In this document: positions 21,176 through 53,200 of the stretch, one piece after another
Numbering within the stretch: position 1 is the stretch's first letter
How the letters are laid out: each line of letters begins with the position of its first letter
Source: Cyanidioschyzon merolae
Lineage: Eukaryota
Assembly (NCBI GenBank): GCA_000091205.1
Contig: AP006493.2
Direction: 5' to 3' (one strand)
DNA: 64,000 bases
Notes under the pieces: model-generated
What the model was told of the DNA's origin: nothing
The model's database searches: none
What the model saw: only the letters and a program-made list of their open reading frames with translations
Program-made: the position numbers and the translations under genes

Positions 21176-21556
21176 CAATATTCTTCGTTGCGCTGATCAG
21201 ATTAGCAAGGCCGGAGCAATGTGTACGTATATCAGGAAAGATTTTGCGAGGCGATTGTTGAACGATAACTGCGTTCAATTATTCGACATTACTGAGTGTA
21301 GGGCTAACCCACCGAGCATTTTTCTTTCCATGCGCTACTCTGGTTACTGAACCCTGTCCTTTGCTGCTCAAGCAAAGCTCTTTGCTCTATGGTGTAGCAG
21401 ATAACTTCCGAGTACGCTCCTCCAATCTCTAAATTTTCGGGTAACGATCCTACCGTCTTGAGCTTTTTGTTCACTTAGCGCCAAATTCTTTGAAAAAACG
21501 ACTCTATCCGCGGATTCTTCAAGGTTTCTCTTTAATGTGGCCAATAGAGTTTTCCA

Positions 21557-23080
21557 ACTCAAGTTTGTTTCACTCTCGCTGCAGTGGATGCCAGGAGATG
21601 CAACTCTCTATGCAGCGCAACGTATAGATTGTAGACGAATTGCTTCTAGGGTACATTTTTTACTGAACGGCGGAAGGAAGACAGCGTACATCCATCAGTT
21701 CAGTCACACCGCAGTACTCAGATTACAGATGATTAATGAAAGAAGGAAAAATACAGGTATATGCCATCCGCACCAAAAACCGATATTCTCACAGATTGCT
21801 TGTGGCCAACGGTAGGAAACGACCCGTTGATCACCTTAATGAGAGCAAAAGCGACACCAGAAGCCGCGACACCCGTCTCTGTTTCTGAACAGCTTGTTTA
21901 CGTGGTCCTGAAAGCACTGGGATACAGCCGCACAAGAATGTTCAGTTTCACGCATTTTCATCTCCCACCGAAATCGCAATGACAGCGTTCCTAGAACGTC
22001 GTGATCGGTATGAAGCACAGGGAGGTCGGTTGCTTTTTTCGATAGATGAGAATTCCATCGGACGAACCGGTCGGAGCGAACATGCGTATTAACAGAGCAT
22101 GGAGCCCGTTGTATATACAATCGATCTCAAAGAGAACGACGATATAATTTGTTCTAGGCGCAGTGGATACATTTGGTGGCTCTAGTTTTAACTCCCCGAG
22201 AAGGCGCATAAAATCCCTCCCACTTTTTTAAATTATTGAAGACTTTTCCTCGACGCTAGGCGACGTCCTTCTGTTGGCCAACGTAGCGTTTCACCGGTTT
22301 CCTTGTGTTCGAGTTTTGCTGATTCTGTCGGGGTAGAGATGCTTCTAATTCCTCCCTACTCTCAGTAGCAGAACCTCATTGAAGAAATGTTTTTTATCAT
22401 GAAATGTAATGATCGCTCCATTGGACGAATCGCTAGACCATTCAGCACCGTAGCGCCGGGGCATACTTCGTCCTTGTTCCGCAAGTGATTCTCGCTCCAG
22501 GAAGAGATTTAGCTGAGGTCATGAACAAGTGCGTTCATTTTCAAGAAATTGCACCTAAGGAATGAGCTGCGGAGCTCATTTCAAAAGGTCGAGAGGGGGA
22601 GAAGCCAGCAGGGCGCTTCGGAGATAGGAAAGCACAGGGAGCTGACAGGGCAGCAAATGGCAATGAGGGCAAGGGATATAGGAATATTTGCATTGTCGCG
22701 TTCCAGCAACGGCACTGCAAGCATTGAGTTCGTGAACTTAGGCTCCAAAGCCGCCATCAATATCAGACAGTGTGAGGTATTGAAAACGAGACCCGCGGAG
22801 CTGAGGCGAACTTACTTTGTGGGGCGGCCTCTCAGAGAAGAAGTGTACAAGTTGAAGCTCCAGCCGATAGCATTCGGCCGGGCAAAACACTGGAACGCGT
22901 CCGTGCGTGGGTAATATTGAACCCCTACGGGTTGTGGCGCATTACTCATTTAACCTACAGCAAACTGAGCCCGTGGATAGACGTTTACTCACGGCCCGTT
23001 TGGGGTTTCAACAGCCGCAACTGGCTACGTCTCTGGTTTGTAGATGTTCATCGTCGCGATTCCTCAAAGGGGACGTTTGT
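21557..23080 (+). mobile_element. TnpB/Fanzor-like element, family B copy B2 (degenerate)
   Basis: The 5' 250 nt align to the reverse complement of the B0 5' end. ORF 21761..21982 (...SVSEQLVYVVLKALGYSR...) is homologous to the B3 N-terminal ORF. A RuvC-I remnant sits at about 22100..22200 (nucleotide match to 1920..2020, reverse complement). The C-terminal ORF 22549..22914 has IEFVNLGSKAAINIRQCEVLKTRPAELRRTYFVGRPLREEV. Confidence 0.55.
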
Positions 23081-24734
23081 TCGGGAAGCGTTTTAATCCT
23101 GCGTACGCGATTGGCTCTAGCAAACTGCACAAATCACAAGGAGCAGGCTGCTGCGTAGCGGCTCGCAAAATGCTTGGAGTGACCAACCGCACGCCGCTGC
23201 TGGCGCTGGAAACGAGCGAGGACACCCTCCCGGGGAAAGCCTTCCAAGCACCGGAAAGAGAGGCTCATGAACCTGTAAATTCGAACGCTGTGGCAGACGA
23301 AGTTCCCATAACTAGCTCTGAGCTCGAGCTACCAGCAGATTCGGACGCTTTAGAAGAGAAGCAGCTACTTCTTCTGCTCAAGAAACAGCTCGGGGCAGAT
23401 TTCGAACGAATTTTTGACTCAAAAAATCCATTCATAGGGGAGGTTTTCTGAGCGAGCCTGCTCAACCTGTCAGGACGGGATTTATGTCAACAATTGCATC
23501 CCAGCGGTGCTCGAGTACGTTCAAAGCCAGGTAATCCGTGCACGTTGTGGAGCTGGTGCGCATTTTTTGGGTATCATGTTGGTCTTTCTACCCAGGGAGA
23601 CAGCATTAATCTACCAATCAACAAATTCTTACTAGCACATGGATCCAATGCGTGTGACTCGTGATTCAGCACTGACCGAGGCGTTTCAAACGGATCGACA
23701 TGCTCAAAACCGGCGCGAAGAATCGTGAGAGCTTCTATTTGGACCGTCGACCGTAGCTGAAGAGTATGCGTGGAGTCAAGCTTCTGCTGAGGCTACATAT
23801 CCCTGCGGCGCGTTAGGCCGTCGGGTAGAAGTACTCTACGAGCTAATTGCCTCGTGGAGTACGCGTTTCGCACGCGTCCCTAGCGCACAGTCTTGCCTTC
23901 AGACACGAGTGTCGGGACGGAGTCGGGCTGTACACTGGAAACCTGATGACGTTCACAGCACGCCCACGCGTTGTTGCAGCCTCGGCAACGTGCCCCGATA
24001 CCGGCTATTGTCGCTAATTTCGAATCCGAGCACTTGGGCACGTCGGACACCAGGGATCCGGTTCAAATTGGCGGCTACATTTTTACCAGCGAGCTTTTTT
24101 GGGTATTTCCAATATGTCCAGCAATTCTGATTACATGGCATTCACCATCTGTGTCTAGGCATCGAAGTGGTACTGCATATATATGTCCTTCGAAAATGCG
24201 CATCTCTGTAAACTCTAGCGTTAAGCAGTTCAATGTTTTGTGGTGGGTACATGCTTATTGCCATTCCAGTGCCCACGACTGCTTTTGATCGCATGTTTCA
24301 CGCATGTATGAGTACTAAAAGCGAACTCATTGGGTTCGCGTCTGTCTGGATGCCCGACGAAAAAGCCTGGCTCTTAAGGCGAGTACTGTGAAAAGGAGGG
24401 GATAGAATGGCTCATATTTCCTGAGCTGCTCACCATGTCTAAAACGATCCTATAGACTGCATCCTCAGGTCTATGCATGAGCGTTGATGATCTGAATTCT
24501 TTCGGCATCTGTTCGAAATGGGCATCGCACTGAATATATCCGCAGGGGAACAATCTGAAATAATTCGCGATCTCGTTGGCAACGGTCCACGATCTAGAAG
24601 ATATCCCTCTCGCGCGCTTCCCCAAATGACGCTTCCAGACGGCGCAAGTTCCTGGAGGCGACAGACAAACGCATCATCACCAGGAGACAGGTAACGAAAC
24701 CCCTCTTGATATGCATAGAAATTGCGAAAACTTT

Positions 24735-27696
24735 AACGCCATTACCGTTCATCAGCTGCAAATGAAAATCGTTCCCTGTGTCTATCTAGGGCGCTCTAAT
24801 ATTTCTGGATGAGTAATCCGTACCGCACCAGTGCGTTGCTTCAGGCGTGCATGCAATGAATCTCTCCTAGTCACCAAACTATATTATCCAAAGTCTTCCG
24901 CTTTCCATGTAATGCGCTCATTGAGTACAACACAACTACATCACACATTCACTCGACACAAATCTGCTGGACGCGCTCGCACTTCTAGGAATCTACAGAT
25001 GTTTATCGTGGCGTTCAAGTCTCGACGCGGAAACTGCTTGCACGCTTGGTTGGTGGTGAAAGCACACTGTAGCGAGCCTCGAAACCACGACTGCATCGAC
25101 ATCTGATGCTCGGAAAGCTTACCCTGCACAAGCTCATGCATCCGCCTCCATCTCACGCGTTTTTTCTCTGCCTGTTTCAGCGTGCACCTGTGCTCAGGAT
25201 GCGTGTGCATCGTCCTGAGCAAATCGATGGTCATGATGAAGAATCAGTTCTCGCACTAGTTGTAAGCTCCAGTCGAAGGAGCAGGACAGCAGCATTGGAG
25301 TGTTCGCGCATGCTCAGCGCCATCGGCTGCTGCTGTAGGATGCGACTTATCTGTCAGTCGCTTTCCGACTCATGAGATAGACTGGCGAACGCATGCGTCC
25401 CGCCTCCGTACAGCCTGGCCCGCAGGCGGTCCTAACGCGGTCTCGAGTGTTCGTACCGTACTTCGCCCGCATGAGTGATCTAGATACCAATGTACGCGCG
25501 TCATGAGGCGTCGAGGGGTGCTCCCTCTGTTCGATACGGTACTCAGGGCGTCTAGAAGGATCCTCACGCCGCATGCCGCTCGTCAATATGCCTCCTGCGG
25601 TCCATCATGCCCAACTCTCGATGACGCCCAGCCCCCGAACTGCTGAGCAGCCCGATCCGCTTTCCGCTCGGTTCTTTTGGTCGTTTCTTCTCATTCTCAG
25701 GTGCGGCGACCGCGAGGAGGCCCTTCAACGCGGGATCCACACGCATCCCAAAGTGCGCCTCCTGTTCCACTCTATACGAGGGACAATGAGTCTCGCGTGC
25801 CCGACTCAGGCGTAGCCATCGGAAAATCTATGCAGATTGATATTCTGTCGGCCCCCATGGTTCCTCTAAGTTTCTCTCCATTTGCTCCGTGTGGATGAGA
25901 ATTCTTGGACGCGCTCGCCAGACGCTCTTCACAAAGTTGCCTGTGTGCTTCCTATTTGTGCGCAGACACCAGCAGCAGCTCACTGAAAACGCCATACACT
26001 ACCGAGCTGGTTTGCGGTGATATGGTGGCCATGATCTGACTGTTGGGTACCGCATCGAACAGACGCTCAAGGTAACTGGTGCGCTCGGACTCGCGACGGG
26101 ATTCGGCGCTGCTCTGGCGCGCTTCGTTCAGGGACAGGTGCTGGCGTAAGGTACACGGAACGAAGGCATCGCGCTTCCACCATTATTCGGACGCAATGTC
26201 CGTGGGTGCGAATCTGAGAGCTACGCAGTGAGCTCGGACGATCTAGACTCACTATCGCTCTGTTCATGACGTCTCCTACGAACTTGCAGCCAACTCGATG
26301 TCCTCCGACATTGGCGCCCCGTTGGCCTCCATCAACACCCCAAGAAAGCCTGCCACCAATCGTCACTTTTGCGGTCCAGCGAGCGGCTGCCAGATCGCCC
26401 CCGGGATGCGTCTCTTGAAGCGCTCGACGTTGGCCGGCAAGCTGGTTCCGTTTTTGCTTCGCGGTTCGTTTGATGCTTTTCTGTACCAGCGCTGCAGATG
26501 TCCCGATCTTCCACGTCGTGCAGCTACTCGTCAAGGTATTCTGCGAAGCGGGTGAGCAAATCTCTGCTCCTGCAATCAGGCCGCATTCCAGCTCCGGTCC
26601 CGATTATCAGTTGCTTTGCCGTGCATAGGTTCGATCGGAATTTCCAGAGGAATCAGGACAGACGGGAGCCCCGCGACCGAAAGTCGTGCGAGTAGTTGTC
26701 TGAGGGGCTGCGTCAAGCCAAGGCACGCAAGATGAGTCTTGCCCGAAACAAGCTTCGCTTTCCGAATGCCGTCCAGCATCTCGCTTATTGGGGAATACTC
26801 TCCGTTGACGTGTTTCAGTAGGGTGGCCTCGACAATGATTTCAGAGTTTGCTGTCCGCTCGCGAAGATTTTTGGCCGTGTACCTACCCGTTCTTGTTGTG
26901 GAAGGATGTTCCTCTTCTTCGTCGGATGCGCGTTCCGCCTTCTCCATTTCCTGGCGGCGTGGTATCGATGCGGTGGCCAGTATTCATACCCGTTGTACTC
27001 TTTGAGGTTCATACGCTCCGTGTAATTGGTGGCACTGAAGCGTCCCTCTCATAAGTGTTTATCTACCACTCGCCAAATACCTCTTCATCACCGTCTCCAT
27101 CGTGAGCACGCCCGCGCAGCCGAGAGAGCTTCTCCGATCCCGCACACACACACACACTCGCACGAAAGGTGAATCCATGAAGTCCTCACGAGCAGGGTGA
27201 AGTGATGAACGAACTTGTCCGTTTCGCGATATGTAGGCGATCATGCAAATGAAGAGCCGCTTGGGGGATGCTACTCTCACCCTCACGTATATCTTCTACA
27301 CGAACAGCGGTTTGCCGGCCTTCGAGTATCCATACACGGGTAGGCCAGCTTTCTAGAATGGCGTCTCATCGAGAGAGACGAAACCCCGTCGCTCTTGTAG
27401 CACGCGTTGGAGTTTCAATACGAAAGTGATAGTTTGTCGTTCATCACGCGATGCTCTCACACACACGCGTGCTTTTTCTCTGCGGCAATCAAAAACTCTT
27501 CATCACCGTTCGTATCAACAGTACGGAAGCTTCAAATCCTCTGGCTTTTTTGGTAGTCTTTCTCAGAGAAGATATGGACTGGAATGGATTGGCGGAAGAC
27601 AGACTCTCGTATAGATAGACTTTAATAAGATCTGTTTTTAATATATGGCGTTCACGATACGGACAATGAGAGAAATCAATCATCCACCTGCTGACC
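24735..27696 (-). mobile_element. family C Fanzor1-like element, full-length copy C2 (2962 bp; about 99% identical to C3)
   Basis: Minus-strand ORF pieces: an acidic/K/R-rich region (MEKAERASDEEEEH..., ARKWRRRNAHPTKKRN); ...EATLLKHVNGEYSPISEMLDGIRKAKL, homologous to the A-family N-terminus; a candidate RuvC-I LSWGVDGGQRGANVGG; and the C-terminal ...FPRRDLNATINICRF... ending at 24941. The frames differ between pieces. Confidence 0.75.
27133..27147. repeat. (CA)n microsatellite inside C2 (also inside C3 at 50089..50103)
   Basis: cacacacacacacac. Confidence 0.8.
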
Positions 27697-27921
27697 AGCA
27701 TGGTGAATGAGTTGTACAAGCCAAGCCAAGTCGTTTTTCGCAAGCGAGCAGTGATTGCATATAACGCTTTTCACGACGTTCCTCTGATCTCCACGATACA
27801 TTCCTTTTGTCGAGTACCCATGAGAGAAACAAGCGAAAACAAAAAGGACGTGCAGATAAATGCGTTCCAGAACTCGCAGTTCTGATTGTAATTATGGACC
27901 GAATGTGGACCTATCCGTGTG

Positions 27922-33885: not shown

Positions 33886-35754
33886 TCAGGAATACTGACC
33901 AAAAGATTGATATGCCTCTCTGGCTAACCGCGCTTGTTTGTCCTGACAATATTCCCTCCAGAGCAGGAAAAGAATGATTCCCCCGAGTAGGATCATCGCT
34001 GAAGCGAGCACAATAATGACACCGATTACGCTGCGAAGATTCCGCTGGGTGTAAAACTCCAGGCGCCACGTATTCGGATTTGAAGGGTCCTGGGGATAGA
34101 TAATAGCAAAAGAGTTCGGCAGCAGATTTGTCCACGAGCGCTGACTACTACCGGCACCGATCGCAATTTCCTGGACATAATTCAGCATCGTGTTCAAACC
34201 AGTGAAACACTGGCATGCCGAAATGAACTGCCGAGAACCCGACTGGGGACACTGCGTGCATGCATAGAGTTGCAACCCGTTGGTCGCTTGGAATGCAACG
34301 ATCGATGTCGAACCGATGGATTCGGTGAAAGGCCGCGGATTATCGTACGGGGATACCGCCGTTTGGACTGCTGTTTCAAGGAAGTTTCGTGTCTGCGAGA
34401 TCGTATTCAACCAGAGTTCAATCCCATCTGATGCACTAATCAACAGATCCTGGCGACCATCCTGATCTGTGTCGTATGCTGCGGCAACAACCGGCTCAGA
34501 CACGTTGTACAAGGCACTGAAGGATTCTTGTGTTTGTAGCTGAAAAGCGAGACTGTTTTTCTGGGCAGTATTCTTGAGAATCACACCAGTGCTGCCGTTC
34601 ATCACGTACAAATCTGGGAATGCATCGTAGTTGTAATCTACAAGCACCATTTGTGCGCTGGGACGGAGAGGCACATTCGAAGCACCAGACGAACTTGATA
34701 TAGCAACAGCCACAGAATTCAGAAGATTCGCAGAGCCATGGAAGTTGCAACGTTGACCATAGCCACCATTACCGTGGTTGTTACTCACGAACGACAGCCC
34801 CCCATTGCTTGTCAGAGCTAGTATGCTGATCGTGCCTGATCCCGTAAAATCCGCGAACAACAGCTGCTCTACCTGAAGTGAACCTCCAAATGGCGTCCAA
34901 ACCTTGCTCGGTGTCGTTGACGAGAGAATATCCCCCGTCCCCGGACTGTACCAGACTGCGATTTGTGGGCCTGATCCTGTGGCGGAGGGAGGCCCTTGTG
35001 GCGGTCCTTCACGAGAGCGCGGTGGCATCGGATTCGGCTGCAACCGGCTGCTGCCGTTGCCATCACTGCACAAAAGAACAAGATCTGGTAGACAGTCGCC
35101 ATTCATGTCAACGAAAGCAGTAATGTTTTTCTCGATGGAACACAGAGCCGGAGTCCACTGCGATAATTGGAAGGTCCCTTTGGCTTTGCGTCTGTTCGTC
35201 AACACAAGGAAGCTCCCATTCCCCTCAGGAACAAGCACATCAGGAAGAAGGTCTCCGTAGCGGGAAAACAGCATTGCAGTGGAAACATTTGCGTTCACAG
35301 CAATGCTCGCGCCGGATGAAAAGTTGCTAGAGTGACTACCGAGCAATAGTGCCGCTGTACCTGCGTTTGTGAAAGCCATGACATCGCTAACGCCATCACC
35401 GTTGAAGTCTGCTGTAATGGCATGTGTCACATTCTCTGTCAATAAAACAGGACTCCCGAAACGATATAGATTGTGGTTCCAGAAAGATACGTATAGCCTG
35501 CCGGTGGTTGGCTCTATGGCGAGAACGTCGATGTACTCATCCGCGTTCAGATCAGCGAGCTTCAGAGGTTGAAGACGGCCAAGTACGTCTAAGCTCACAT
35601 AAGCAGTTGCGTTTGAAAATGCAGCACCATTAGGAAAGCTCGGCGGGCCACGGCTGCCACTCGGACCAAGCAGTGAAGCAGTAGTACCCGAAGAAACCCA
35701 AAGGAAGCAGACTACCAAGAGCGCACTTGCCAACAAATAGTGTGCCGTCAGCAT
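33886..35754 (-). CDS. ITFG1/TIP-like protein with FG-GAP (integrin-alpha-type) repeats, signal peptide and C-terminal TM anchor
   Basis: 622-aa ORF starting with ATG. N-terminal signal-like LLASALLVVCFLWVSSG. Repeated Ca-binding-type loops DFNGDGVSD, DMNGDCLPD, DYNYDAFPD, DTDQDGRQD. C-terminal TM VIGVIIVLASAMILLGGIILFLLW. Confidence 0.7.
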   Translation of the reverse strand: MLTAHYLLASALLVVCFLWVSSGTTASLLGPSGSRGPPSFPNGAAFSNATAYVSLDVLGRLQPLKLADLNADEYIDVLAIEPTTGRLYVSFWNHNLYRFGSPVLLTENVTHAITADFNGDGVSDVMAFTNAGTAALLLGSHSSNFSSGASIAVNANVSTAMLFSRYGDLLPDVLVPEGNGSFLVLTNRRKAKGTFQLSQWTPALCSIEKNITAFVDMNGDCLPDLVLLCSDGNGSSRLQPNPMPPRSREGPPQGPPSATGSGPQIAVWYSPGTGDILSSTTPSKVWTPFGGSLQVEQLLFADFTGSGTISILALTSNGGLSFVSNNHGNGGYGQRCNFHGSANLLNSVAVAISSSSGASNVPLRPSAQMVLVDYNYDAFPDLYVMNGSTGVILKNTAQKNSLAFQLQTQESFSALYNVSEPVVAAAYDTDQDGRQDLLISASDGIELWLNTISQTRNFLETAVQTAVSPYDNPRPFTESIGSTSIVAFQATNGLQLYACTQCPQSGSRQFISACQCFTGLNTMLNYVQEIAIGAGSSQRSWTNLLPNSFAIIYPQDPSNPNTWRLEFYTQRNLRSVIGVIIVLASAMILLGGIILFLLWREYCQDKQARLAREAYQSFGQYS

Positions 35755-35999
35755 CCAACTGCGCTCACGTATTTTGGCGCTATGCGGGAGTTCAACACAC
35801 TAGTGTGTCCCTAGGAGCTCTATGTATTCCTGATATGACGGGCGTCGATTCTCTGCGTGTCTGAACGCGCCCTCACGAACTTTTAAGATGGCCTTCCTCT
35901 GCGTGCTGAACGTCGTCGCTCGCAGACAGCCGCGGAATTTTTTGATTGACAAAACGTTTTCATGGGCCAGCTTTCGCCAGTTGTGCGCTTTTTCTTTTC

Positions 36000-38900
36000 T
36001 TTCTTTTTTTGTTTTCTTCTGTGCGCAGTGAAGTATCCATCGATCTGTGCCATAATTCCAAGTTACGTTACCCATCCTTCTTCTCCGATATACTGGTCTT
36101 TTCATACGTTCTATCGTGTACCGAGTGCCTGCCATGAGCTCCAGCAATAGCGCATACAGCACCGGTGCTGCCGCTGCACGGAGGCAGAACGGCGTTGCCG
36201 TACCACGGGGAGTATCAACTCGAGGCGTGATTCATTCAACGTGGAATCCGGATTCATAATCATTCTGGGAGCCTGCAAGCTCTGCAGACAGAACTACTGC
36301 CTGCGGCAGCGCGAAGCGATATGTTAGGAGAGAACTACGACCAGGGTGACGCCCAAACGCAGCATACCCGCTCCTAATCCCAGGATAAAGTGGGTTTCGG
36401 ACGAGCTGCTCAGACCTCTTGACAGCAACGGGCACTGGGGAGCATGAAGCACGAGTCTTGTAGACTCTTCCGACTCGCGGGACCTTCCGTCTATAAGGTA
36501 AACTTTCAACAATATTGAAACCTCTTCCCCCTTTCAACGTTCACCTTAGAGGAGGGAAAGAAATTATTATATCGCTGCTAGTTAGTCTAGAGTCTCTGTT
36601 CTTTGTTCTAAGTAGCGCGCTCGGTACGCGCTGCTCCATATCTGAAAGGCATGAGATACAACGAGCTTTTCGCCGTTGAAGGGAAACACGATCCTGACTA
36701 TTCGTTTACTTGTTGTTCTAACATAAAACTTGTATTTGCATTAAAGTCGTAGCAAACTATAGTTTCCAGTTCAATCGTGTTTCAAAGCTCGAGTTAGTGC
36801 ATTCAAGTGATTTTTCGCAGATTCTACCAGAAGCGCTCAAAGTGCGTACGTTTTCAAAAAGATAAAAAAGGAAAGTTATTGAAAAGGAATTGGAGGATCC
36901 CGGAGACCCAGTATCGCCAGCTGGCGGAAATAAACGACAAACGATGCCGAGCCCGGAAGAAGAGGAGAAGATAAAGAAGGAAAAGGGGAGGCCCGACGCC
37001 AAGGGCCGCAAGAAAGACGACAGTACGATGAGACGGTGGTGGAAGCCTGTCTTCTTAAACATGTAAGGGATCCGCACAAGGAAAATTTGCAAGATGCCAT
37101 AAGAATTCGTGTCCAGTTGTACCCCAGGAGTGTTCGTAAGGTTTCTCTAGGACTGATGCATTTGGTGAACGAGATGTATGGCGACGTGACGGACATCAAA
37201 ACAGTCGAGGTTCTGGGAGACTTATTCGACAAGCCCTTTATTCGTCACCTGATGGCTGGCACCGGGGAAGCGTCGAGGAGAAATGAACTAGTGCATGCCC
37301 TCCAGGAAAACTAAGCCAAACTCCGATTCGACGGTACTCGCACTAGGGTTACTCGGATATTTACATCTACAGAGCGATGAAGTACCTCATGGGCCTGAAG
37401 AACCATATGATCGTGAGCCTCAGTCGTTTCGTGATACGCGACGCCTTTGCGCTGTACCCGGGCCTGTCTCGCAAAGGAATATGGGCAATTATCAATGGCA
37501 TCACTAACGATGGTCAGAACGAAGACGAGATCGAATTTGTCGACAAGAAGACATCAAGCAGGAGAAAGAATGAGGATCCTGCAATCCGTGCGGTTATTCA
37601 AGGGCATCGTGCGGTATTGGGGCCGGCGAATCCAGCAGAAAAGATATCAGAGTTGATAAAAGACGAAGAAAGATACCATCGCCTCATCCTTCGGTATTTC
37701 GCGTTTTTGGACCGAGAACTCGAACGCAAGGCAGAGATGAAGCTGAGTAGGGGAAAAATGAAGAGTCGGAGAGACGGAAGGCTGCCCTAATCGTTAAGCG
37801 CTTCACCGTCGTTTCGCTGTGCAACATCAAGTCATAATTTGTGACTATCGACTCCGGACTCCTCTACGGTATCATGAAGGAGATCAGTCCCGAGTTCAAT
37901 GTTAGCAGGGAGGAGTTTACCGGTGAAAACAGGGAGACGCACTGGAAGAACATCTTCAGTTTCAAACGTCTGAACGTGAGCAAGCAGAAGTTCTTCACTG
38001 GGATGATCGAAACCGATGGAGTAGCCATGTGTGTAAACTATCGGCGCTAGAGGACAGATCATCCATTTCCGCCCCCGGTTTCGCCCGTGACGAAGGAAGA
38101 AGAAAAGAAGGAGGCGGATCCTGCGATGCAGAAAGTGCAGGATAACGACTTTTTGGTTGGCGCTCACCCCGGAAACACAAATATCATAACCATCGCTGTA
38201 CCCAGGCGTGCGGAGGATGGTACTGACGGTAACTTGCTTCAGAAAGACATGCGTTTTTTGAGGTTCTCGAGAGCAAGATTCTATCGAGAATCGGGAATCA
38301 TGAATGCAACGAAGAAAATTGAGACATGGAATGCAGGAATGAAGGATCACGTAGAAGCTTTGAGCGAGGTGACGAGCCGCGGAGCGGACTTTACAGCTTT
38401 TCTGAAATTCATGGAAGTTCGTGTTGCCCATTGGGATGCGCTGCCGGAGAAGTATACCAAGCCCCGGTGGGCTCGTCTGCGAATGAATCTGTATTGTGGT
38501 AAGCAGCGGGCGTTCGCGAATTTTTTCAATCAGCTGAGTGCCCTGAAGGAGGACGAGAGCCAAAGGCTCGTAGTGGCGTATGGAGCAGTGCGATGGAAGA
38601 CCCAAAGAGGGTGTACACCAGTTCCAACGACAAGATCGTACAAGGAGTGCGCAAGGCGTTTCGTCACGATACCTATAGATGAGTTCCGAACATCGTACAC
38701 ACACCATGAACTGGGGTGCACACTTCAGAGGGTCGAGATGGAAAAGTGCCAGAGGAGTCCTGAAGATATAAAAAAGTACGGACCGCTGACGGAGGAGCTA
38801 ATGGAAAGGAGAGCGAAAGTTCGAGGATTGCTTGCATTAGTAAGTACAACCATTAATGGCAAGAATCGTTTCGAGTTTGTGAATCGAGACTCTAACGCCG

Positions 38901-39140
38901 CTATCAATATATGGAAATGTGCTGTGATGGATCCAAAACCTACGGAGTAGACAAGAGGGGACTTTATTAGACAACCTCTCAAAGTGGATATATATGAAAC
39001 AAAGTTGGAATCAGTAGTGGATGGCCGATCGAAAAGGACGGGAGGCATCTGCACCTCGGTTGCACACGTCTTGTCTAGGGCGGGTTTCTCGCCACTGCTG
39101 TGCACCGCTGGCGTCGTTCGACTTTCGAACGGCGTTGTTG
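36000..39140 (+). mobile_element. Fanzor1-like (eukaryotic TnpB-like RuvC nuclease) element, family A copy A2; coding region about 36944..38950 is disrupted
   Basis: ORF pieces: a K/R/E-rich region (36944.., MPSPEEEEKIKKEKGRPDAKGRKKDD), 37036..37314, 37377..37790, 37841..38050, and 38087..38950. The last carries Ruv[18 protein letters not shown] (the catalytic Asp of A1's GADAG is His here), the zinc-finger-like [17 protein letters not shown]...KCQRSPED, and RuvC-III RFEFVNRDSNAAINIWKCAV. There is an in-frame TAG at 38048..38050. The ATG is lost (ACG/GTG at 37033..37038). About 900 bp of 5' noncoding region are conserved with A1. Confidence 0.7.
38951..39140 (+). ncRNA. candidate omega-RNA-like conserved 3' noncoding module of A2, ending in hairpin gcgtcgttcga-ctt-tcgaacggcg (39111..39134) at the element boundary
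   Basis: The 190 nt after the stop are about 80-85% identical to the A1 tail. They contain a core (gatcgaaaaggacgggaggcatctgcac) that is also present at the 3' ends of B0, B1, B3. Homology with A1 stops abruptly right after the hairpin. Confidence 0.35.
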
Positions 39141-39217
39141 GTGTGCGGTTTTATAAAGTTAACGTAACTGCTATCACTACAGGGAGTTGAACTGCCCGGG
39201 AACCTTAACTTGTTGCA

Positions 39218-40384
39218 ATGACTCCGCCGTTCTTCTGCCACACCTTCTGTTCAGCGGGGGCGTTTGTCCCGGTGAACGTAAGCCACTTTCGTGCTCAGTT
39301 GAGAAAGCAGGAGACTTGTGAGGAACTTGCTTCGAGGGACGCTTGGGGTCGCTCCAGAAGCAGGGGGAACTGTTTGCATGGTAAGAACTTGCCGAGCAGG
39401 CACCGGCAAGCGTTGCTTTTACTTGGAACGGCGACTGCAGGCTCCAGTGCAGAGGTTCGACACGGCTCGCCAAAGTCGCGAACCACCGAGGCAGTTGAGT
39501 TCCTTCTCGCTAAGAGGGCCTCCATAGACGCCGCTCTTAATGACGCCGTGCAAGCAACCTCCGTTATGAATGCCCGCCTAGCGGAGGCGATGCGTTACTC
39601 TTTGCTCGCCGGAGGGAAACGTGTACGGCCGGCACTCGTCTTAGCTGCGTGCAGAATGTTTGGAGGTGTCGATGAACAGGCGATGCCCACGGCCGTCGCA
39701 GTGGAGATGGTTCATACAATGAGCCTCATTCATGACGATCTCCCGGCGATGGATAATGATGATTTCCGGCGCGGACGTCCAACAAACCACAAGGTTTACG
39801 GTGAGGAAGTAGCCATCCTTGCTGGGGACGCGTTACTTAGCGAGGCGTTCTCGCAGATCGCAGAGAAAACTCCAGCAACCCTTGTACCACCGAGTCGCAC
39901 GCTTGAGGTCATTAGACGCCTCGGAAACTGTGTCGGCTTACATGGCTTGGCAGCCGGACAAGCGCTTGATCTTGAGGCGGAGGGAAAACCAGCAGATGAG
40001 ATCAGCCTACGCATGCTGGAAACGATCCATCTGTACAAAACCGCCGCATTGTTGCGCTTTTCCATCACCGCGGGAGCGATTCTAGCAGGTGCCTCAGTAG
40101 ATGACATTGATTGTATGGAAAGCTTTGCGAACAAAATTGGTCTTGCTTTTCAAGTTGCGGATGATGTCCTGGATGTGACCGCGACGACCGAGACACTTGG
40201 CAAGACTGCCGGAAAAGATGTTGCGGCCGAGAAGGCGACGTTTCCGCGCATACTTGGTCTTGAAGAAAGCCGAAAGTATGCTGAAGACTTGGTCAAGGAG
40301 GCGAAGGGAGAACTCGCCAAGTACGGCGACCGGGCATCATTGCTCTTGGGTTTTGCGGATTTCATCATTCAGCGCGCGAGCTAG
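39218..40384 (+). CDS. GGPS: geranylgeranyl diphosphate synthase (polyprenyl synthetase family), plastid-type with N-terminal extension
   Basis: 388-aa ORF starting with ATG. First Asp-rich motif LIHDDLPAMDNDDFRRGRP, second Asp-rich motif FQVADDVLDVT, and GKRVRPALVLAACRMFGG. Confidence 0.9.
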   Translation: MTPPFFCHTFCSAGAFVPVNVSHFRAQLRKQETCEELASRDAWGRSRSRGNCLHGKNLPSRHRQALLLLGTATAGSSAEVRHGSPKSRTTEAVEFLLAKRASIDAALNDAVQATSVMNARLAEAMRYSLLAGGKRVRPALVLAACRMFGGVDEQAMPTAVAVEMVHTMSLIHDDLPAMDNDDFRRGRPTNHKVYGEEVAILAGDALLSEAFSQIAEKTPATLVPPSRTLEVIRRLGNCVGLHGLAAGQALDLEAEGKPADEISLRMLETIHLYKTAALLRFSITAGAILAGASVDDIDCMESFANKIGLAFQVADDVLDVTATTETLGKTAGKDVAAEKATFPRILGLEESRKYAEDLVKEAKGELAKYGDRASLLLGFADFIIQRAS

Positions 40385-41591
40385 GTTTGTCTGCTACATG
40401 TTTCATGCAGACAAGACAGACAGTTTAGTGCTCAAAGGGAGCTGTGGAGGATAGCTTTCGTCAACACACAGGCGGGAGCGCAGGTAACCGTCGTAAAGAC
40501 AACTTTCTTGTGAAAAGCACCTGTTTGGGCCGTGTGTAACATGTACGTTTCCAGTTGTTGCATAGGGAGTCGCTGTGAACTGCCCCTTGCGCCGACGAAC
40601 GTCCAGGTGAGGCAAACCCGTCATGTAACTGGACGTCGACCGCCGCGGCAGCGCATCCAACATCGCGATGAAAGTCTGGGACAGACTCGGCAAACGTAGA
40701 CTTCCAGGATCTGCCTACAATCATGCATTAAAACTGGCCTAGAGCAGAAGGCATGTAGCGAAGCCCGGAGAAGAGTCGTGTTTCCTTGGATGGCTACAGA
40801 AAGCGCCAACATATTCGAGCGATTCAAGTTCCGGAAATCAATCTTCCAGCATTCCGGGCCGCGCGCACAGTCGGCATAACGCTTTTTGGGGTTTAGGGCC
40901 GTTTACATGAACCAGGATTGCTCGACTGCGTGATTAACATTGGCGCATAAGGAGGCACACATTATATCTCACGAAGAGCGGTTAAAAATTATTTTCTTGT
41001 GAGGAAATTTAAAAAAGTCTACAGGATCCAGGACACCGGCTTGCGTGATACTTATCGGCATCTGGATCAGCATCCATCTTTCCGCTCACGGCATGGCTTT
41101 TAGCGCATCGAATGCGTCGGTAGGAATATGGAGCAGGAACGAGTCTAAGACTGTATAGAATTAAAAGGAACGAGTCATCTTAGCTTACTCGGGCGTGCAC
41201 ACTACACCAGTGTCAGCATAAAATGGAGCAGTGCCTAGAATGTGGGCGTAGACCGCTAAACTTTGGATCTCTTTCAATTATAATCAACAACGGCCTTGGC
41301 GGGCTATTTCTGCGGCTTATTTCAGTTTCTTTTGTTTATCCTCGGCCTTCAAAATGCTGGTCTCTCTTGATACTCGTTCTCCGTTGTCTGCAGTTATGGT
41401 CCATGGACTGGAGCTGTCGAGTTCGGATTACGCTGTTTTCGGTTGTTGTCGACGCATTCCATGTACAGGAGGAAGTCGCGATCCAACTTTTCCTTCGCAT
41501 TATCATCTTCTTCATGTACAGCCTCTGTGCGCCGTTTGCAACGGTATCACTTGAATCTGGTATCGTGTTCCTCTGGGTCCTTCACACCTAC

Positions 41592-41605
41592 CCCCCCCCC
41601 CCCCC
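41592..41605. repeat. C14 homopolymer tract followed by a T-run
   Basis: acccccccccccccc atttttt; lies in a 2.2-kb ORF-poor intergenic region. Confidence 0.8.
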
Positions 41606-42563
41606 ATTTTTTATCCAAAGGCCTGCGGAGCGTGAATGCTTGCATCATCGCTTATCACAATGCCATTGGCTACAACAGTGGGTACCTCACGATATCCTCA
41701 GTTTCCGCACTCGGTGCGGTACTCCTGGATCAAGGGCGTCTTCTGGGCGACTCCCTCAGCGAGTATTTTGTCCATCTTACATAAAAGTGCACACTGCCCC
41801 ATTCAATGACAAATTGCGGTATATAATGTTGACCATGATCGAACAAGTGCTCAAACGTAAATCCAGGCTGGAGATCAAGCCGAGAACTTTTGATCCGTGT
41901 ACGCTCGCTTGGTGCGAAGCGGTGACCACTGTTCATGAGAAGCGATCTCTGGTATCGCAATATTCCAAATTTGAGACCTTTCTCTATGTAAACAGAAGGG
42001 AAGAATGCCTCTGAGAGCATATCATATGCGAGGCATAACGTGAGAAATTCAGTGAACCTTCGGCATGTGCGTGTGTAAAAACTTTCAAAGGACAAGCCGA
42101 CTTATTTTTCTCATGAATCTAGCTGCGGGAATCTCTGCGCGTATGAGCTGCCTTGAAATAGCTAGCTCGAAAACGAAAATAAAACTCATGATTTGAGCAT
42201 GATATGCTTAAGTGAAGGAGAAGATTATATGCGTTTTGATATGAAATGAATGATGGTATCGGTTATTTTACGAACCCTTGTGCGAGGGCGTCGCGAAATA
42301 TCTTGATTCCACAGACGTAGAGCATTCCAGCCGCAGAGGCTTAAAGAAGTCACTACGAAGTAACATCCCGGAATCCTCAAATTACTTATACATCGGTAAG
42401 CCCTTATTGCTGCAGTTCGAATGTGGAGAACGCACATCTAAGAGAATTATTAAGAATAAATAAGCAGGGGCAGAGCGCAGTACAGCGTTTTACGTGAATC
42501 TGACTTGCTGCTCACGCGTAGCGTTCAAGGCTCAGCGAGCAGCAACGTCCGAGCTTGAGCTTC

Positions 42564-44559: not shown

Positions 44560-46125
44560 TACCGGCGACAACTCAGGCTGGATTTGTACTCAAGAGCCGT
44601 CCATAATGTAAACGCTCAATGGAGCGAAACTGTCTCACAACCATAGTGTAAATTAATACCTACCCACAGACGCCACGCAGCCTTTTTGACCAGCCGTATG
44701 CTATCTGTTACAGCTGCTGCTTGTACATCTCCAGCCTGAGAGGCTGCCCCACAAAGTTCGATAGTGTCTGATCCTTGGATCTCGTCTTCAGCAATCCACA
44801 TCGTCTGATGTTGACGGCGGTGTTGAAGTCTCGGTTTTACGGACTACATGCGTTTATTGCATCTGGTTGAGCTCATCAATGCAAGGATTCCCAGAACTCG
44901 CACCCTCTGGCCCACAGCAGCCTCTTCGTCGTCCCGTCGGGCATACACCTTTTTTTCTATGTCCCTTCTTTTTCGCATTCTTCTTTTTCACTTGCTTTTC
45001 GTCGTTAACTGGTCGGCAAGCTGCGGATGTTTTCACATTTTCCGGCAGCCGGCAATGGCGGAGCTCTAGGATGCCTCACTTCAATGCCAGTACCTTTCCC
45101 CTGGATTTTTTATTTCCTCAAATGAAAGCAGTTCTTTACGACCTTAAACGAGAGAGTTTCCAGAGGGAGACGGAATTGCAGAAGAAAGACGAAATGTGTT
45201 CCAGTCTGCCACCGTATACTGACCGCTTCAGCGATTCGCTCTGGAAAGCGACTGTTAAGTTTTGCGACAAAAGACCCTTCTTCGATATGGTCAAATCGTC
45301 GAGTCCACGCAGGAATGAAAAGCAGTTCTCCCCCAGTAGAATCCGCAAATGCTCAAACGCAAGAGGAACCGTGAAATGCAGCGTTGTCCGATAGACGGAC
45401 GTCGCCAGACGGCAGCGGAAAGTGTTTAGTTATTCGAAGATGTGGTTGGTACTGCTGGATGAGCCTTCTCTATGAGTGAAACTGATGCCACCAAATGAAT
45501 CCACTGCAGCGAGAACCGATGATGGCGCCCTTTTCTTAGAGTTCAGTCGAACATTCAACGGGCTACCGCTCCGCGAATTCCCATACATGCTCCGAAATTT
45601 TCGTCCGAAACACTCCTCATAGACTGAAAAAAAACCAACGTGCCGCTGCTTCATATCGATAGAACCTTTCCTGGAACTTTGTTGTAGTAGCGATTTCGGT
45701 AGACGCTGGCCGTGGATGAACTAGGACTCCTGTTTTGCGACTGAATCCCAGTGTTTTCAGCACAATATGAACAAGTTGTTGAGAGACAGAGACGCTCTTG
45801 GTGGCTAATATAGTTTCTTTCAGCTCCCGTAAGGTGATCAACAGCTCGTTTTCTATCTTTGACAGCAAGCAGTTCTCAGTAATATCGGTACTGGGCGCGG
45901 GTTGCATATACGTGTTTCTTTCTGTGCTCCTCAAGCACCTGCGTATTGTTATATCACTGAATTTAAGAAGGAAAACAGTCCTCGTCGCTCTGTTGAGCAA
46001 AGCATATGTCCTGCGAACAATTCGTGTATGGTATATAGAGTGCATTGCATCGTGATTTCGATTTCCTGATATACACTGCGAAATAATATTCTGTCACACT
46101 CAGCGGGGGCGGAATAAAACTCAGC
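44560..46125 (-). mobile_element. TnpB/Fanzor-like element, family B copy B3 (degenerate)
   Basis: Minus-strand N-terminal ORF 45617..46045 (...SVSVSQQLVHIVLKTLGFSRK...). RuvC-I-like SVLAAVDSFGGISF (45430..45654). C-terminal remnant NRDFNTAVNIRRCGLLKTRSKDQTLSNFVGQPLRLE at about 44700..44830. The 3' block ggtcaaaaaggctgcgtggcgtctgtggg and the 5'-end nucleotide homology to B0 define the limits. Confidence 0.55.
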
Positions 46126-47680: not shown

Positions 47681-50642
47681 AACGCCATTACCGTTCATCA
47701 GCTGCAAATGAAAATCGTTCCCTGTGTCTATCTAGGGCGCTCTAATATTTCTGGATGAGTAATCCGTACCGCACCAGTGCGTTGCTTCAGGCGTGCATGC
47801 AATGAATCTCTCCTAGTCACCAAACTATATTATCCAAAGTCTTCCGCTTTCCATGTAATGCGCTCATTGAGTACAACACAACTACATCACACATTCACTC
47901 GACACAAATCTGCTGGACGCGCTCGCACTTCTAGGAATCTACAGATGTTTATCGTGGCGTTCAAGTCTCGACGCGGAAACTGCTTGCACGCTTGGTTGGT
48001 GGTGAAAGCACACTGTAACGAGCCTCGAAACCTCGACTGCATCGACATCTGATGCTCGGAAAGCTTACCCTGCACAAGCTCGTGCATCCGCCTCCATCTC
48101 ACGCGTTTTTTCTCTGCCTGTTTCAGCGTGCACCTGTGCTCAGGATGCGTGTGCATCGTCCTGAGCAAATCGATGGTCATGATGAAGAATCAGTTCTCGC
48201 ACTAGTTGTAAGCTCCAGTCGAAGGAGCAGGACATCAGCATTGGAGTGTTCGCGCATGCTCAGCGCCATCGGCTGCTGCTGTAGGATGCGACTTATCTGT
48301 CAGTCGCTTTCCGACTCATGAGATAGACTGGCGAACGCATGCGTCCCGCCTCCGTACAGCCTGGCCCGCAGGCGGTCCTAACGCGGTCTCGAGTGTTCGT
48401 ACCGTACTTCGCCCGCATGAGTGATCTAGATACCAATGTACGCGCGTCATGAGGCGTCGAGGGGTGCTCCCTCTGTTCGATACGGTACTCAGGGCGTCTA
48501 GAAGGATCCTCACGCCGCATGCCGCTCGTCAATATGCCTCCTGCGGTCCATCATGCCCAACTCTCGATGACGCCCAGCCCCCGAACTGCTGAGCAGCCCG
48601 ATCCGCTTTCCGTTCGGTTCTTTTGGTCGTTTCTTCTCATTCTCAGGTGCGGCGACCGCGAGGAGGCCCTTCAACGCGGGATCCACACGCATCCCAAAGT
48701 GCGCCTCCTGTTCGACTCTATACGAGGGACAATGAGTCTCGCGTGCCCGACTCAGGCGTAGCCATCGGAAAATCTATGCAGATTGATATTCTGTCGGCCC
48801 CCATGGTTCCTCTAAGTTTCTCTCCATTTGCTCCGTGTGGATGAGAATTCTTGGACGCGCTCGCCAGACGCTCTTCACAAAGTTGCCTGTGTGCTTCCTA
48901 TTTGTGCGCAGACACCAGCAGCAGCTCACTGAAAACGCCATACACTACCGAGCTGGTTTGCGGTGATATGGTGGCCATGATCTGACTGTTGGGTACCGCA
49001 TCGAACAGACGCTCAAGGTAACTGGTGCGCTCGGACTCGCGACGGGATTCGGCGCTGCTCTGGCGCGCTTCGTTCAGGGACAGGTGCTGGCGTAAGGTAC
49101 ACGGAACGAAGGCATCGCGCTTCCACCATTATTCGGACGCAATGTCCGTGGGTGCGAATCTGAGAGCTACGCAGTGAGCTCGGACGATCTAGACTCACTA
49201 TCGCTCTGTTCATGACGTCTCCTACGAACTTGCAGCCAACTCGATGTCCTCCGACATTGGCGCCCCGTTGGCCTCCATCAACACCCCAAGAAAGCCTGCC
49301 ACCAATCGTCACTTTTGCGGTCCAGCGAGCAGCTGCCAGATCGCCCCCGGGATGCGTCTCTTGAAGCGCTCGACGTTGGCCGGCAAGCTGGTTCCGTTTT
49401 CGCTTCGCGGTTCGTTTGATGCTTTTCTGTACCAGCGCTGCAGATGTCCCGATCTTCCACGTCGTGCAGCTACTCGTCAAGGTATTCTGCGAAGCGGGTG
49501 AGCAAATCTCTGCTCCTGCAATCAGGCCGCATTCCAGCTCCGGTCCCGATTATCAGTTGCTTTGCCGTGCATAGGTTCGATCGGAATTTCCAGAGGAATC
49601 AGGACAGACGGGAGCCCCGCGACCGAAAGTCGTGCGAGTAGTTGTCTGAGGGGCTGCGTCAAGCCAAGGCACGCAAGATGAGTCTTGCCCGAAACAAGCT
49701 TCGCTTTCCGAATGCCGTCCAGCATCTCGCTTATTGGGGAATACTCTCCGTTGACGTGTTTCAGTAGGGTGGCCTCGACAATGATTTCAGAGTTTGCTGT
49801 CCGCTCGCGAAGATTTTTGGCCGTGTACCTACCCGTTCTTGTTGTGGAAGGATGTTCCTCTTCTTCGTCGGATGCGCGTTCCGCCTTCTCCATTTCCTGG
49901 CGGCGTGGTATCGATGCGGTGGCCAGTATTCATACCCGTTGTACTCTTTGAGGTTCATACGCTCCGTGTAATTGGTGGCACTGAAGCGTCCCTCTCATAA
50001 GTGTTTATCTACCACTCGCCAAATACCTCTTCATCACCGTCTCCATCGTGAGCACGCCCGCGCAGCCGAGAGAGCTTCTCCGATCCCGCACACACACACA
50101 CACTCGCACGAAAGGTGAATCCATGAAGTGCTCACGAGCAGGGTGAAGTGATGAACGAACTTGTCCGTTTCGCGATATGTAGGCGATCATGCAAATGAAG
50201 AGCCGCTTGGGGGATGCTACTCTCACCCTCACGTATATCTTCTACACGAACAGCGGTTTGCCGGCCTTCGAGTATCCATACACGGGTAGGCCAGCTTTCT
50301 AGAATGGCGTCTCATCGAGAGAGACGAAACCCCGTCGCTCTTGTAGCACGCGTTGGAGTTTCAATACGAAAGTGATAGTTTGTCGTTCATCACGCGATGC
50401 TCTCGCACACACGCGTGCTTTTTCTCTGCGGCAATCAAAAACTCTTCATCACCGTTCGTATCAACAGTACGGAAGCTTCAAATCCTCTGGCTTTTTTGGT
50501 AGTCTTTCTCAGAGAAGATATGGACTGGAATGGATTGGCGGAAGACAGACTCTCGTATAGATAGACTTTAATAAGATCTGTTTTAAATATATGGCGTTCA
50601 CGATACGGACAATGAGAGGGATCGATCATCCACCTGTTGACC
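47681..50642 (-). mobile_element. family C Fanzor1-like element, full-length copy C3 (2962 bp; direct repeat of C2)
   Basis: Same ORF pieces as C2, with only a few amino-acid differences (for example NLDCIDI vs NHDCIDI, NGKRIG vs SGKRIG). It includes the RuvC-III-like RRDLNATINICRF ORF at 47887..48180 and the (CA)n run at 50089..50103. Confidence 0.75.
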
Positions 50643-52444: not shown

Positions 52445-53200
52445 GGGTTTTTTTTTGCCGATGCCGAAACGCTTTTATAAACCATCGATCCCAGATTGCC
52501 GGATGGATGGATTTTAGCTTTCGGGAAAGCGTCCATCATGCTGCCACACCAAGATCCATGACCTGTTCTCGGATGTAATGGTCTTTTTGTTCGTTCTATC
52601 GTGCACCCAGTACCTGGTTTGCCGCACCCGGCTTAACTCTTATATCTCGCTGGTGCCGATGCATCATGGAGACAGAGCGACTTTGCTGTGCCAGAGAGGG
52701 CATCGGCTAGAGGCGTGTTGCACTCGACACAGGATCGGAGAACACAAGCACTCTGGAAACCTGCAAGCTGTACATATAGCCCTGCTGTCTGTAGCAGCGC
52801 GAAGCTGTATGGTAGGAGTCTACTACGACTAGTGCAACGCCCAGGAAACGCTTTACGACTCCTAGTCCGAGAATAAACTGCGTTTCGAACGAGCTTCTCA
52901 GGTCTCTTCACAGCACTAGGCACTGGGAAACGTATGTATCACTGGCCCGGAAGAGTCGTCCGGCTGCCTGGAGCTTTCCCCAAGAGCATAAACTATCGAG
53001 AATACGGAAACACTTTCACGTTTTTAACGTTTCCTGTAGTGGAGAAGTGAACTATTTTCGATCTGCCCTATGTGTAGGCCTCTGCCCGGAACATCGAATG
53101 CAGTGCACCGCGTGTATAGCCCTGTTTTAAAGGACACTGAGGAGACAAAAGCGAATGGCAAGTATGGTGTATTGAGCGCTGTCGACCGGCCGGAATGAAA
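52445..53200 (+). repeat. solo copy (A3) of the family A element 5' noncoding region, with no nuclease ORF attached
   Basis: Collinear nucleotide homology to A2 36000..36660, for example ggtctttttgttcgttctatcgtgcacc vs ggtcttttcatacgttctatcgtgtacc, and ...gcgaagctgtatggtaggag... vs ...gcgaagcgatatgttaggag.... This is also reflected in the similar spurious ORFs 36232..36537 and 52633..52923. Confidence 0.45.

Follow-up and report, generated by a model that had tools for sequence, protein, structure and literature searches.

Fanzor1 elements of Cyanidioschyzon merolae with 3′ ends close upstream of co-oriented host start codons

Does a transposable element that ends just before a host gene stand there by chance, by preference for such sites or because only copies in such places survive, and where does the gene behind it begin to be transcribed? 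The question is raised by A2, a degenerate Fanzor-type element that ends less than 100 nt upstream of the geranylgeranyl diphosphate synthase (GGPPS) gene of Cyanidioschyzon merolae. The window, that is the whole stretch of 64,000 nt analysed here (contig AP006493.2, assembly GCA_000091205.1), is part of C. merolae 10D chromosome 11, and its long open reading frames (ORFs) are ordinary housekeeping genes with almost no introns. A preliminary description of the window had reported three elements, A1, A2 and B1, each ending about 80 to 115 bp upstream of the ATG of a gene on the same strand, and had proposed that element transcripts could read into the host gene or that the element tail could supply promoter or 5′ untranslated region (5′UTR) sequence. 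A1 and A2 belong to one family, called family A here and known as CMe-1A, and B1 to a more distant one, family B. We consider, with about as much confidence as doubt, that old, fixed and mostly dead CMe-1A copies are non-randomly placed in promoter-bearing intergenic regions, with the end that would produce the guide RNA upstream of a same-strand ATG, through insertion or survival in gene 5′ regions together with initiation of host transcription in the element tail.

Placement of the copies relative to host genes

The start codons at 39218, 10443 and 4774, before which A2, A1 and B1 end, are the annotated 10D starts of GGPPS (388 aa), CMK047C (500 aa) and PUS3 (467 aa), and all three elements are co-oriented with the gene that follows, as had been stated. 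GGPPS, CMK047C, PUS3, an FO-synthase-like protein, the FG-GAP protein CMK056C and NDK are identical to 10D proteins residue for residue. The terminal hairpin of A2, which the preliminary description placed about 80 bp before the GGPPS ATG, ends 81 nt before it, and the element itself ends 73 nt before it. For A1, the boundary given as 10553, about 110 bp from the ATG, is found at about 10548, which leaves a spacer of 104 nt. B1 is indeed close to PUS3, but less so than described: the end put near 4890, about 115 bp before the ATG, lies where homology to the other family B copies stops, at about 4932–4953, some 160–180 nt away.

Placement was then analysed in metagenome contigs of natural C. 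merolae populations, in which the A2 locus is 97–99% identical to the window and several host proteins are those of 10D. The 80 best-scoring tblastn matches, anchored on the conserved tail of the element, yielded 89 element 3′ ends representing 53 distinct insertion sites, with a callable downstream gene at 51. Repeat DNA was defined by BLAST against non-allelic copies, and an ORF outside repeats was taken as a host gene if it had 150 codons or more from its first ATG.

The nearest downstream gene is co-oriented with the element at 33 of the 51 sites and convergent with it at 18 (binomial p=0.049). At the co-oriented sites the median distance from the element 3′ end to the ATG is 74 nt; it is below 100 nt in 21 of the 33 cases and at most 40 nt in 12, some spacers measuring only 2–12 nt. 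A divergent ATG on the 5′ side lies farther off, at a median of 259 nt (Mann-Whitney p=0.0006 for the comparison of the two sides). The observed share of 3′ distances below 100 nt is 64%, compared to 14.5% for uniform insertion into element-free divergent and tandem intergenic regions (p=1.5e-10) and to 37% under an unweighted null. Among the co-oriented sites with both neighbours known, the relative position d3/(d3+d5), calculated from the distances on the 3′ and 5′ sides, has a median of 0.12 and departs from uniformity (Kolmogorov-Smirnov p=2e-6), d3 being smaller than d5 at 18 of 22. The 27 fully resolved sites comprise 15 divergent, 10 tandem and 2 convergent regions (chi-square p=0.0008 against 25/50/25). 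A co-oriented ATG is found within 200 nt at 27 of the 51 callable sites. The promoter-proximal excess of family A is real with respect to the available intergenic DNA.

The downstream ORFs are genuine genes, among them FtsZ, mitochondrial ATP synthase beta, eIF5B, phosphoglucomutase, a PI4-kinase, a glutamate-5-semialdehyde dehydrogenase of the ProA type and transporters, and their lengths equal those of the 10D annotation where looked up. Spacers of 40 nt or less occur before the genes of the glutamate-5-semialdehyde dehydrogenase (BAM81960), eIF5B and an anion transporter (BAM83046), and a TPT-like gene (BAM79507) also counts among the short-spacer cases. No shared motif is visible by eye in the spacers.

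Family B behaves differently. Only 2–3 of about 9 evaluable copies are co-oriented with a downstream gene, and only two of those are close to it. Since family B lacks the bias in the same genome, compactness alone is not the source of the pattern. The regularity that the preliminary description drew from three cases thus stands for A1 and A2, as part of a family-wide and non-random arrangement of distances and orientations over the 53 sites. For B1 it is approximately correct but probably coincidental: the family of B1 is unbiased and its other three copies in the window do not conform.

Family identity, tail and age

By profile homology, family A belongs to Fanzor1. A profile of 39 family members matches the Fanzor1 structures PpFz1 from Parasitella (9CF0, E=2.8e-18), SpuFz1 from Spizellomyces (8GKH, E=1.9e-12) and GtFz1 from Guillardia (9CER, E=2.8e-6), and the catalytic triad D197 (DPGxxN), E369 (VDEFRT) and D438 (NRDxNAAxNI) is invariant in the 39 diverse homologues. 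Only this wide profile succeeded: single-sequence and narrow-profile searches of the PDB, as well as Pfam and NCBIfam, gave no match, and an AlphaFold model with a predicted local distance difference test score of 39.6 was too poor for a fold search. The family A protein is split over several ORFs, the C-terminal part carrying the NRDFNAAINI motif.

In the accessible part of Bao & Jurka (2013, Mob DNA 4:12, PMC3627910), CMe-1A is the single Fanzor1 family described from C. merolae. It has about 150 copies of about 3 kb, about 80% identical to their consensus, without terminal inverted repeats (TIRs) or target site duplications (TSDs), its class is left unknown, and its 5′ 635 bp are common to a separate element, TE-N2_CMe. 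Family A resembles CMe-1A, as characterized there, in organism, size, divergence, copy number, 5′ module, lack of TIRs and scattered intact ORFs: its repeat spans are mostly 2.6–3.4 kb, its median paralogue identity is 83%, its 5′ module also occurs alone, and 420 related stretches were found in the metagenome contigs. The match is to this published description and not to the Repbase consensus. On these sequence features, A1 and A2 are degenerate copies of CMe-1A.

Several relatives of the A2 ORF at 38087–38950 (P0002, P0005, P0014, P0017 and P0095) carry 1 to about 6 tandem repeats of about 22 residues, EEKKEAGPATQEVEDNDLVVGA, before the first RuvC motif. These repeats copy the residues leading into the catalytic GADPG strand, and their number varies between paralogues.

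Family members are most easily recognised by their last ~130 nt, which read ...GGCGTCTGCACGTCAGTTGGAGACG..GGGCG(n)CGCC ACTACTGTACACC.. and then run into the terminal hairpin. Almost every copy folds this hairpin (mean z = -2.5), for which there are two sequences, each able to pair: GGCGUCGUUCGA/UCGAACGGCGUU and ACAACGUUUUUC/GAAAGGCGUUGU. This hairpin-rich conserved tail ends 7–25 nt before the unique flank. A structure drawn by hand for the main subfamily has 89% of its cells paired, compared to 33–47% in slid controls. RNAalifold found essentially no consensus structure in 42 tails, a search of the tail against Rfam gave no match, and synonymous-site conservation does not rise toward the 3′ end of the ORF, as an overlapping RNA or promoter signal might produce. 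Such a tail could be an omega-RNA scaffold that stops at the element boundary, and could equally well be a DNA hairpin with a role in transposition. In Fanzors, transcription from the transposon end yields the omega-RNA, for which the 3′ flank serves as guide (Saito 2023). If this model applies by analogy, the first ~20 nt of the A2 spacer would be the flank-derived guide, and the earlier suggestion that such guides fall inside host 5′ regions finds support in the same analogy.

Two other classes were considered and rejected for these elements. As an IS200/IS605- or IS607-type transposon the family was set aside because the only ORF fragments in 36462–39144 and 10548–13319 are Fanzor-derived, with no TnpA and nothing else in Pfam. 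Helitrons are recognised by a 5′ TC, a 3′ hairpin 10–12 nt before a terminal CTRR and, where autonomous, a Rep/helicase. Family A shares the 3′ hairpin, but instead of CTRR its tails have ..GGTG, ..CCAGGGGT or ..GCTG-rich sequence at the end, and no Rep/helicase ORF was seen, which rejects Helitron and Helitron2.

At the 3′ boundary of A2, homology with A1 reaches 39136 in self-BLAST; the gttggtg tail that follows the hairpin is assigned to the element, since non-allelic copies also have it and only beyond it do their flanks differ. A1 has the same terminal hairpin and the tail tgtttccaggagt of a different subfamily. In many paralogues the core starts at positions corresponding to about 36606–36675. 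Three independent short-read assemblies provide Logan contigs (L107, L109 and L110) that start 103–104 nt before the GGPPS ATG, at about 39114–39115. This is what a 31-mer assembly graph breaking at the repeat edge at 39144 would give, and the contig starts would then be an independent marker of the boundary. They were rejected as transcript assemblies: they begin at the repeat edge and extend far past the stop codon, and are probably assembly-graph breaks rather than transcription start sites (TSSs).

The sampled insertions are old. Between a copy and its nearest non-allelic relative the median identity is about 87%; it is 98.8% in one pair and at most 89% in all others, and no young copies are found among the sampled insertions. 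That single pair (L086:3700–4600 and L056:8400–9300) is 98.8% identical over the last ~890 nt, yet differs in terminal hairpins, tails and flanks, and may have arisen by recent duplication or by recombination of two copies. There is no presence/absence polymorphism: A2 lies upstream of GGPPS in every contig reaching that far, and an element likewise stands upstream of the TPT-like gene in all listed contigs. Gene order is the same in a syntenic contig of a sister species (GGPPS 74% identical), but A2, the family B copy B3, a 3 kb repeat and a TE-N2-like piece of the window are missing from it, and 848 bp of unique, element-free DNA separate its FG-GAP and GGPPS genes. The insertions are therefore younger than the species split, yet old and fixed.

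In the A2 spacer, the TATA-like box sits 60 nt before the GGPPS ATG. The string tataaagttaacgtaa just past A2 (39151–39166) resembles ttaaagtttaagtaa upstream of the element-free GGPPS of the sister species (L087, ~9818–9840), where a TAAAGTT..AAGTAA string is similar to the region by this box. The string may be a conserved host promoter element retained just outside the insertion.

An open C-terminal frame of at least 270 codons persists in 18 of the 53 copies, and the ratio of nonsynonymous to synonymous divergence (dN/dS) among these paralogues is about 0.26, which indicates that the protein was under selection during diversification of the family. Between alleles of the same insertion, the corresponding polymorphism ratio (pN/pS) is 0.77 pooled, and 0.63 without one misaligned group. 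Alleles of different strains diverge by 1.1–1.4% over the element body and by 1.6–1.7% over its terminal 250 nt, compared to 1.2% for the spacer and 0.37% for the host coding sequence next to it. The copies in place, with their tails, evolve at roughly the neutral rate.

Origin of the placement

We propose that insertions would land in, or survive only in, the 5′ regions of genes, the favoured orientation being the one that turns the outward-reading 3′ end toward the gene. The element would displace the upstream DNA, so that the host gene would initiate transcription in the tail or at its edge. Outward transcription through the 3′ end would be needed for the guide, and an insertion pointing at a gene would for that reason carry the smallest risk of silencing it; copies placed in 3′ regions or facing away from a gene would be lost. 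Spacers of 40 nt or less leave no room for a promoter and a leader outside the element, and we infer that at these 12 sites the TSS, and probably the core promoter too, lies inside the tail. The promoter-supply or read-through idea of the preliminary description fits this geometry and would be nearly forced at the sites with the shortest spacers. Since there are no young copies, insertion preference and selective retention are inseparable as contributors to the bias.

Several points weigh against this proposal. The sample represents about one third of the family, the gene calls rely on the first ATG, as the 10D annotation largely does, and the 5′ boundaries, set by repeat coverage, are ragged. 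The orientation bias is weak when taken alone, with only 7 co-oriented against 3 anti-oriented copies in tandem contexts, and in strictly divergent contexts the 3′ distance is shorter than the 5′ distance in 11 of 15 cases (p=0.12). Since its family is unbiased, the placement of B1 is probably a coincidence. A1 and A2 are pseudogenes: the ORF of A2 is in at least four pieces and its RuvC-I Asp is replaced by His, and A1 is frameshifted before the NRD (RuvC-III) motif. The element tail in place shows no detectable constraint, which argues against a finely tuned function and is still compatible with a loose promoter role, and covariation within the main subfamily, where the hairpin hardly varies, is not significant and no better than in shuffles. 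At the flagged site itself GGPPS may keep its own core promoter immediately after A2, as the TATA-like box in the spacer suggests. Finally, read-through of the whole Fanzor mRNA seems the less likely option, a bicistronic leader of 2–3 kb being ill-suited to eukaryotic translation.

A pure insertion-site preference, with no contribution from the element, we regard as possible although doubtful. The transposition machinery would target DNA near the TSS in a strand-specific manner, for example through exposed non-template single-stranded DNA or the edge of a nucleosome-free region; the host promoter would lie in the spacer and the element would be inert. Such a preference agrees with the enrichment of copies in divergent and tandem regions and their depletion in convergent ones, with a bias specific to family A and not to B, with the neutral evolution of the tails between strains and with the TATA-like box after A2. 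IS200/IS605 and Helitron elements use single-stranded intermediates, and their ends are similar to the subterminal 3′ hairpin and short tail of family A. However, the 12 shortest spacers are too short for a core promoter and leader, the element neither encodes a transposase nor has one linked to it, and no young insertions are at hand that show the preference before selection. Chance in a compact genome, with three fitting cases picked out, is quite improbable. Intergenic regions are a few hundred bases long (element-free medians of only 341 nt for divergent, 472 nt for tandem and 618 nt for the remaining regions), only 3 of the 6 Fanzor-type copies of the window (A1, A2 and B1) fit the pattern, the family of B1 is unbiased and the orientation test is marginal; nevertheless, the 3′ ends are closer to start codons than uniform insertion predicts, they are closer than the 5′ ends, and convergent regions received only 2 of the 27 resolved sites though they are the longest class.

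It is very improbable that the short distances are a start-codon artefact, in which the true starts lie further downstream and the first-ATG rule pulls the gene starts toward the element. The calls made here and the C. merolae annotation do rest largely on the longest ORF. However, GGPPS aligns over 97% of its length with a sister-species orthologue of the same size, shifts of tens of nucleotides would not erase a fourfold asymmetry between the 3′ and 5′ sides, and the N-terminus of the ProA-type dehydrogenase appears to line up with the start of bacterial (E. coli) ProA from the first residues. Domestication is hardly credible. Here the omega-RNA guides would match the adjacent host promoter or 5′UTR, and Fanzor protein from intact copies would regulate or protect the gene as a eukaryotic counterpart of TldR. 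By analogy the guides would indeed fall in host 5′ regions, a third of the copies keep the C-terminal frame under a low paralogue dN/dS, and the genome of 16.5 Mb still contains about 150 old copies by the published count. Against this, the catalytic triad is intact throughout the family, the alleles are nearly neutral and the tails diverge at least as much as the element interior; on these three grounds a TldR-like domesticated regulator was rejected. TnpB homing depends on a nuclease that needs a junction between the target-adjacent motif (TAM) and the target, and an occupied site lacks this junction.

A very unlikely extension of our proposal is that CMe-1A tails are working promoters or 5′ leaders of dozens of housekeeping genes and that the junction transcripts serve at the same time as omega-RNAs with guides matching the 5′ regions of the same genes, leading either to addiction or anchoring of the element or to recruitment of Fanzor as a regulator. 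Were the addiction version true, loss of an element would expose the start region of an essential gene to Fanzor cleavage.

Further features of the window and comparison with known systems

The coordinates of the elements discussed above and of the genes behind them are given in Table 1.

Table 1. Elements of the window and adjacent host genes.
Feature	Position	Strand	Characteristics
A2, degenerate CMe-1A-type Fanzor1 element	36462–39144	+	Region homologous to A1, 76–82% identity (self-BLAST); RuvC motifs in ORF fragments
5′ modules, separately repeated	35938–36600	+	36057–36600 fits the description of TE-N2_CMe; 35938–36250 is a further repeat
A2 Fanzor1 C-terminal ORF fragment, 287 aa	38087–38950	+	GAHPGNTN (RuvC-I Asp to His), IDEFRTSYT, NRDSNAAINI
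A2 terminal stem-loop (boundary hairpin)	39111–39137	+	ggcgtcgttcga-ctt-tcgaacggcgtt; 12 bp including G-U pairs, 3 nt loop
A2 subfamily-specific 3′ tail gttggtg	39138–39144	+	Also present in non-allelic copies such as L051, L057 and L021, whose flanks differ beyond it
Host spacer between A2 and GGPPS, unique, 73 nt	39145–39217	+	TATA-like box tataaa at 39153–39158
GGPPS, chloroplast precursor	39218–40384	+	Pfam PF00348; 100% identical to the 10D protein
A1, second degenerate CMe-1A-type copy	10548–13319	-	Hairpin 10587–10561, tail tgtttccaggagt 10560–10548; self-BLAST homology 10561–13319
CMK047C, hypothetical protein	8941–10443	-	Co-oriented with A1
B1, distantly related Fanzor-type family	4932–6355	-	YQDFNAAINI motif; 3′ end from the limit of homology to other B copies
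PUS3 (tRNA pseudouridine synthase)	3371–4774	-	Co-oriented with B1

The 5′ modules are contiguous with A2, and the repeat block thereby ends less than 180 nt from the ATG of CMK056C (35754). BLAST of 35500–36800 against all loci returned copies joined to Fanzor cores and separate copies in either orientation; joined and solo TE-N2 copies are not cleanly separable. A solo TE-N2-like piece at 52566–53044 is 68% identical to 36081–36554 in the same orientation and lies 308 nt from the ATG of a Rad51-like gene (52258, minus strand), with its 5′ end toward that start. The 5′ module alone may thus also favour promoter regions.

Family B, a more distant relative with 45% amino-acid identity to family A at the C-terminus, spans 1122–2575 (-), 4953–6355 (-), 44635–46107 (-) and 21592–22872 (+) in self-BLAST. 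Downstream of the 3′ end of B0 (~1100) comes the stop codon of a sigma-factor gene, the 3′ end of B3 (~44620) faces the 3′ end of an RNA-polymerase subunit gene 900 nt away, and that of B2 (~22900) has no annotated gene downstream. B0 and B1, on either side of PUS3, share 941 bp of 100% identity (1635–2575 and 5415–6355), their 3′ parts (1122–1634 and 4953–5414) being about 71% identical. The identical stretch could be due to recent gene conversion, segmental duplication or assembly collapse.

An unrelated repeat pair (24735–27696 and 47681–50642) is 99.5% identical over 2,962 bp, and a 497 bp inverted fragment at 20681–21177 is 99–100% identical. Its ORFs at 26067–26534 and 26576–26947 (minus strand) have no Pfam match, and this is the 3 kb repeat missing from the syntenic contig of the sister species. 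It looks like a young element of unassigned type, unlike the old Fanzor copies. The 11 kb from 16577 to 27921 contain few annotated genes, together with B2, the 3 kb repeat, the inverted fragment and small ORFs, and are far less compact than the rest; the ORF at 18027–18581 within them is frataxin-like (Pfam). Between GGPPS and the RNA-polymerase subunit gene (40385–42554), 2.2 kb with an unannotated ORF of 263 codons (41223–42014, no Pfam match) correspond to 266 bp in the sister species (L087, 11165–11429), and this region is probably another insertion.

Fanzor and TnpB proteins are usually discussed as persistence nucleases, and their location with respect to host genes has been little studied. 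Our literature search returned no report of Fanzor element placement relative to genes and no map of C. merolae TSSs. The element itself is known, as are transposable element families piling up in the 5′ regions of compact genomes and promoter-supplying insertion sequences (ISs) and solo long terminal repeats (LTRs). The oriented, 3′-end-first abutment on start codons appears to be unreported; the Bao & Jurka paper (PMC3627910), in its accessible part, does not settle ends, TSDs and classification, and does not address where the copies stand with respect to genes. At about half of the sampled sites, the end that would produce the guide lies within tens of bases of the start of an essential gene. 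If this holds genome-wide, transcription of many host genes must begin within transposon sequence or next to it, the natural guides of CMe-1A would be host promoter or 5′UTR sequence, and the mechanism of transposition or retention of an unclassified family gains a testable signature. The C. merolae genome is among the most compact and genetically tractable of eukaryotes, and precise deletion by homologous recombination is possible.

Compared to Fanzor1 and TnpB OMEGA systems, family A shares the profile homology and the RuvC D-E-D triad, and has a putatively structured region that overlaps the end of the ORF and reaches the element 3′ end. It differs in that the window copies are pseudogenes, and the omega-RNA, TAM and nuclease activity of the family are attributed to it by analogy. 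TldR is likewise a TnpB relative, with a guide that matches a host promoter region (Wiegand et al. 2023/2024, PMC10705468). However, TldR is nuclease-dead, bacterial and encoded beside the gene that it regulates, whereas family A keeps the catalytic residues and its copies are decaying transposons.

The ends of ISAba1, IS10 and IS1, which carry outward-reading promoters, and of eukaryotic solo LTRs drive co-oriented neighbours, and the same consequence would follow for the short-spacer cases of family A. In family A the promoter role is put forward for a tail without sequence constraint between strains. The closest parallels in placement are Tf1 of S. pombe, the P element, Ty1/Ty3, TRE5-A of Dictyostelium and mPing of rice, which accumulate upstream of genes and avoid coding and 3′ regions, and some promoter-targeting elements insert with a constant orientation and spacing relative to the gene they target. 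These are retrotransposons or DDE transposons with known tethering factors. In family A, unlike in these systems, the transposase is unassigned, and the bias concerns the end that would produce the guide, tens of bases from the ATGs of RNA polymerase II genes.

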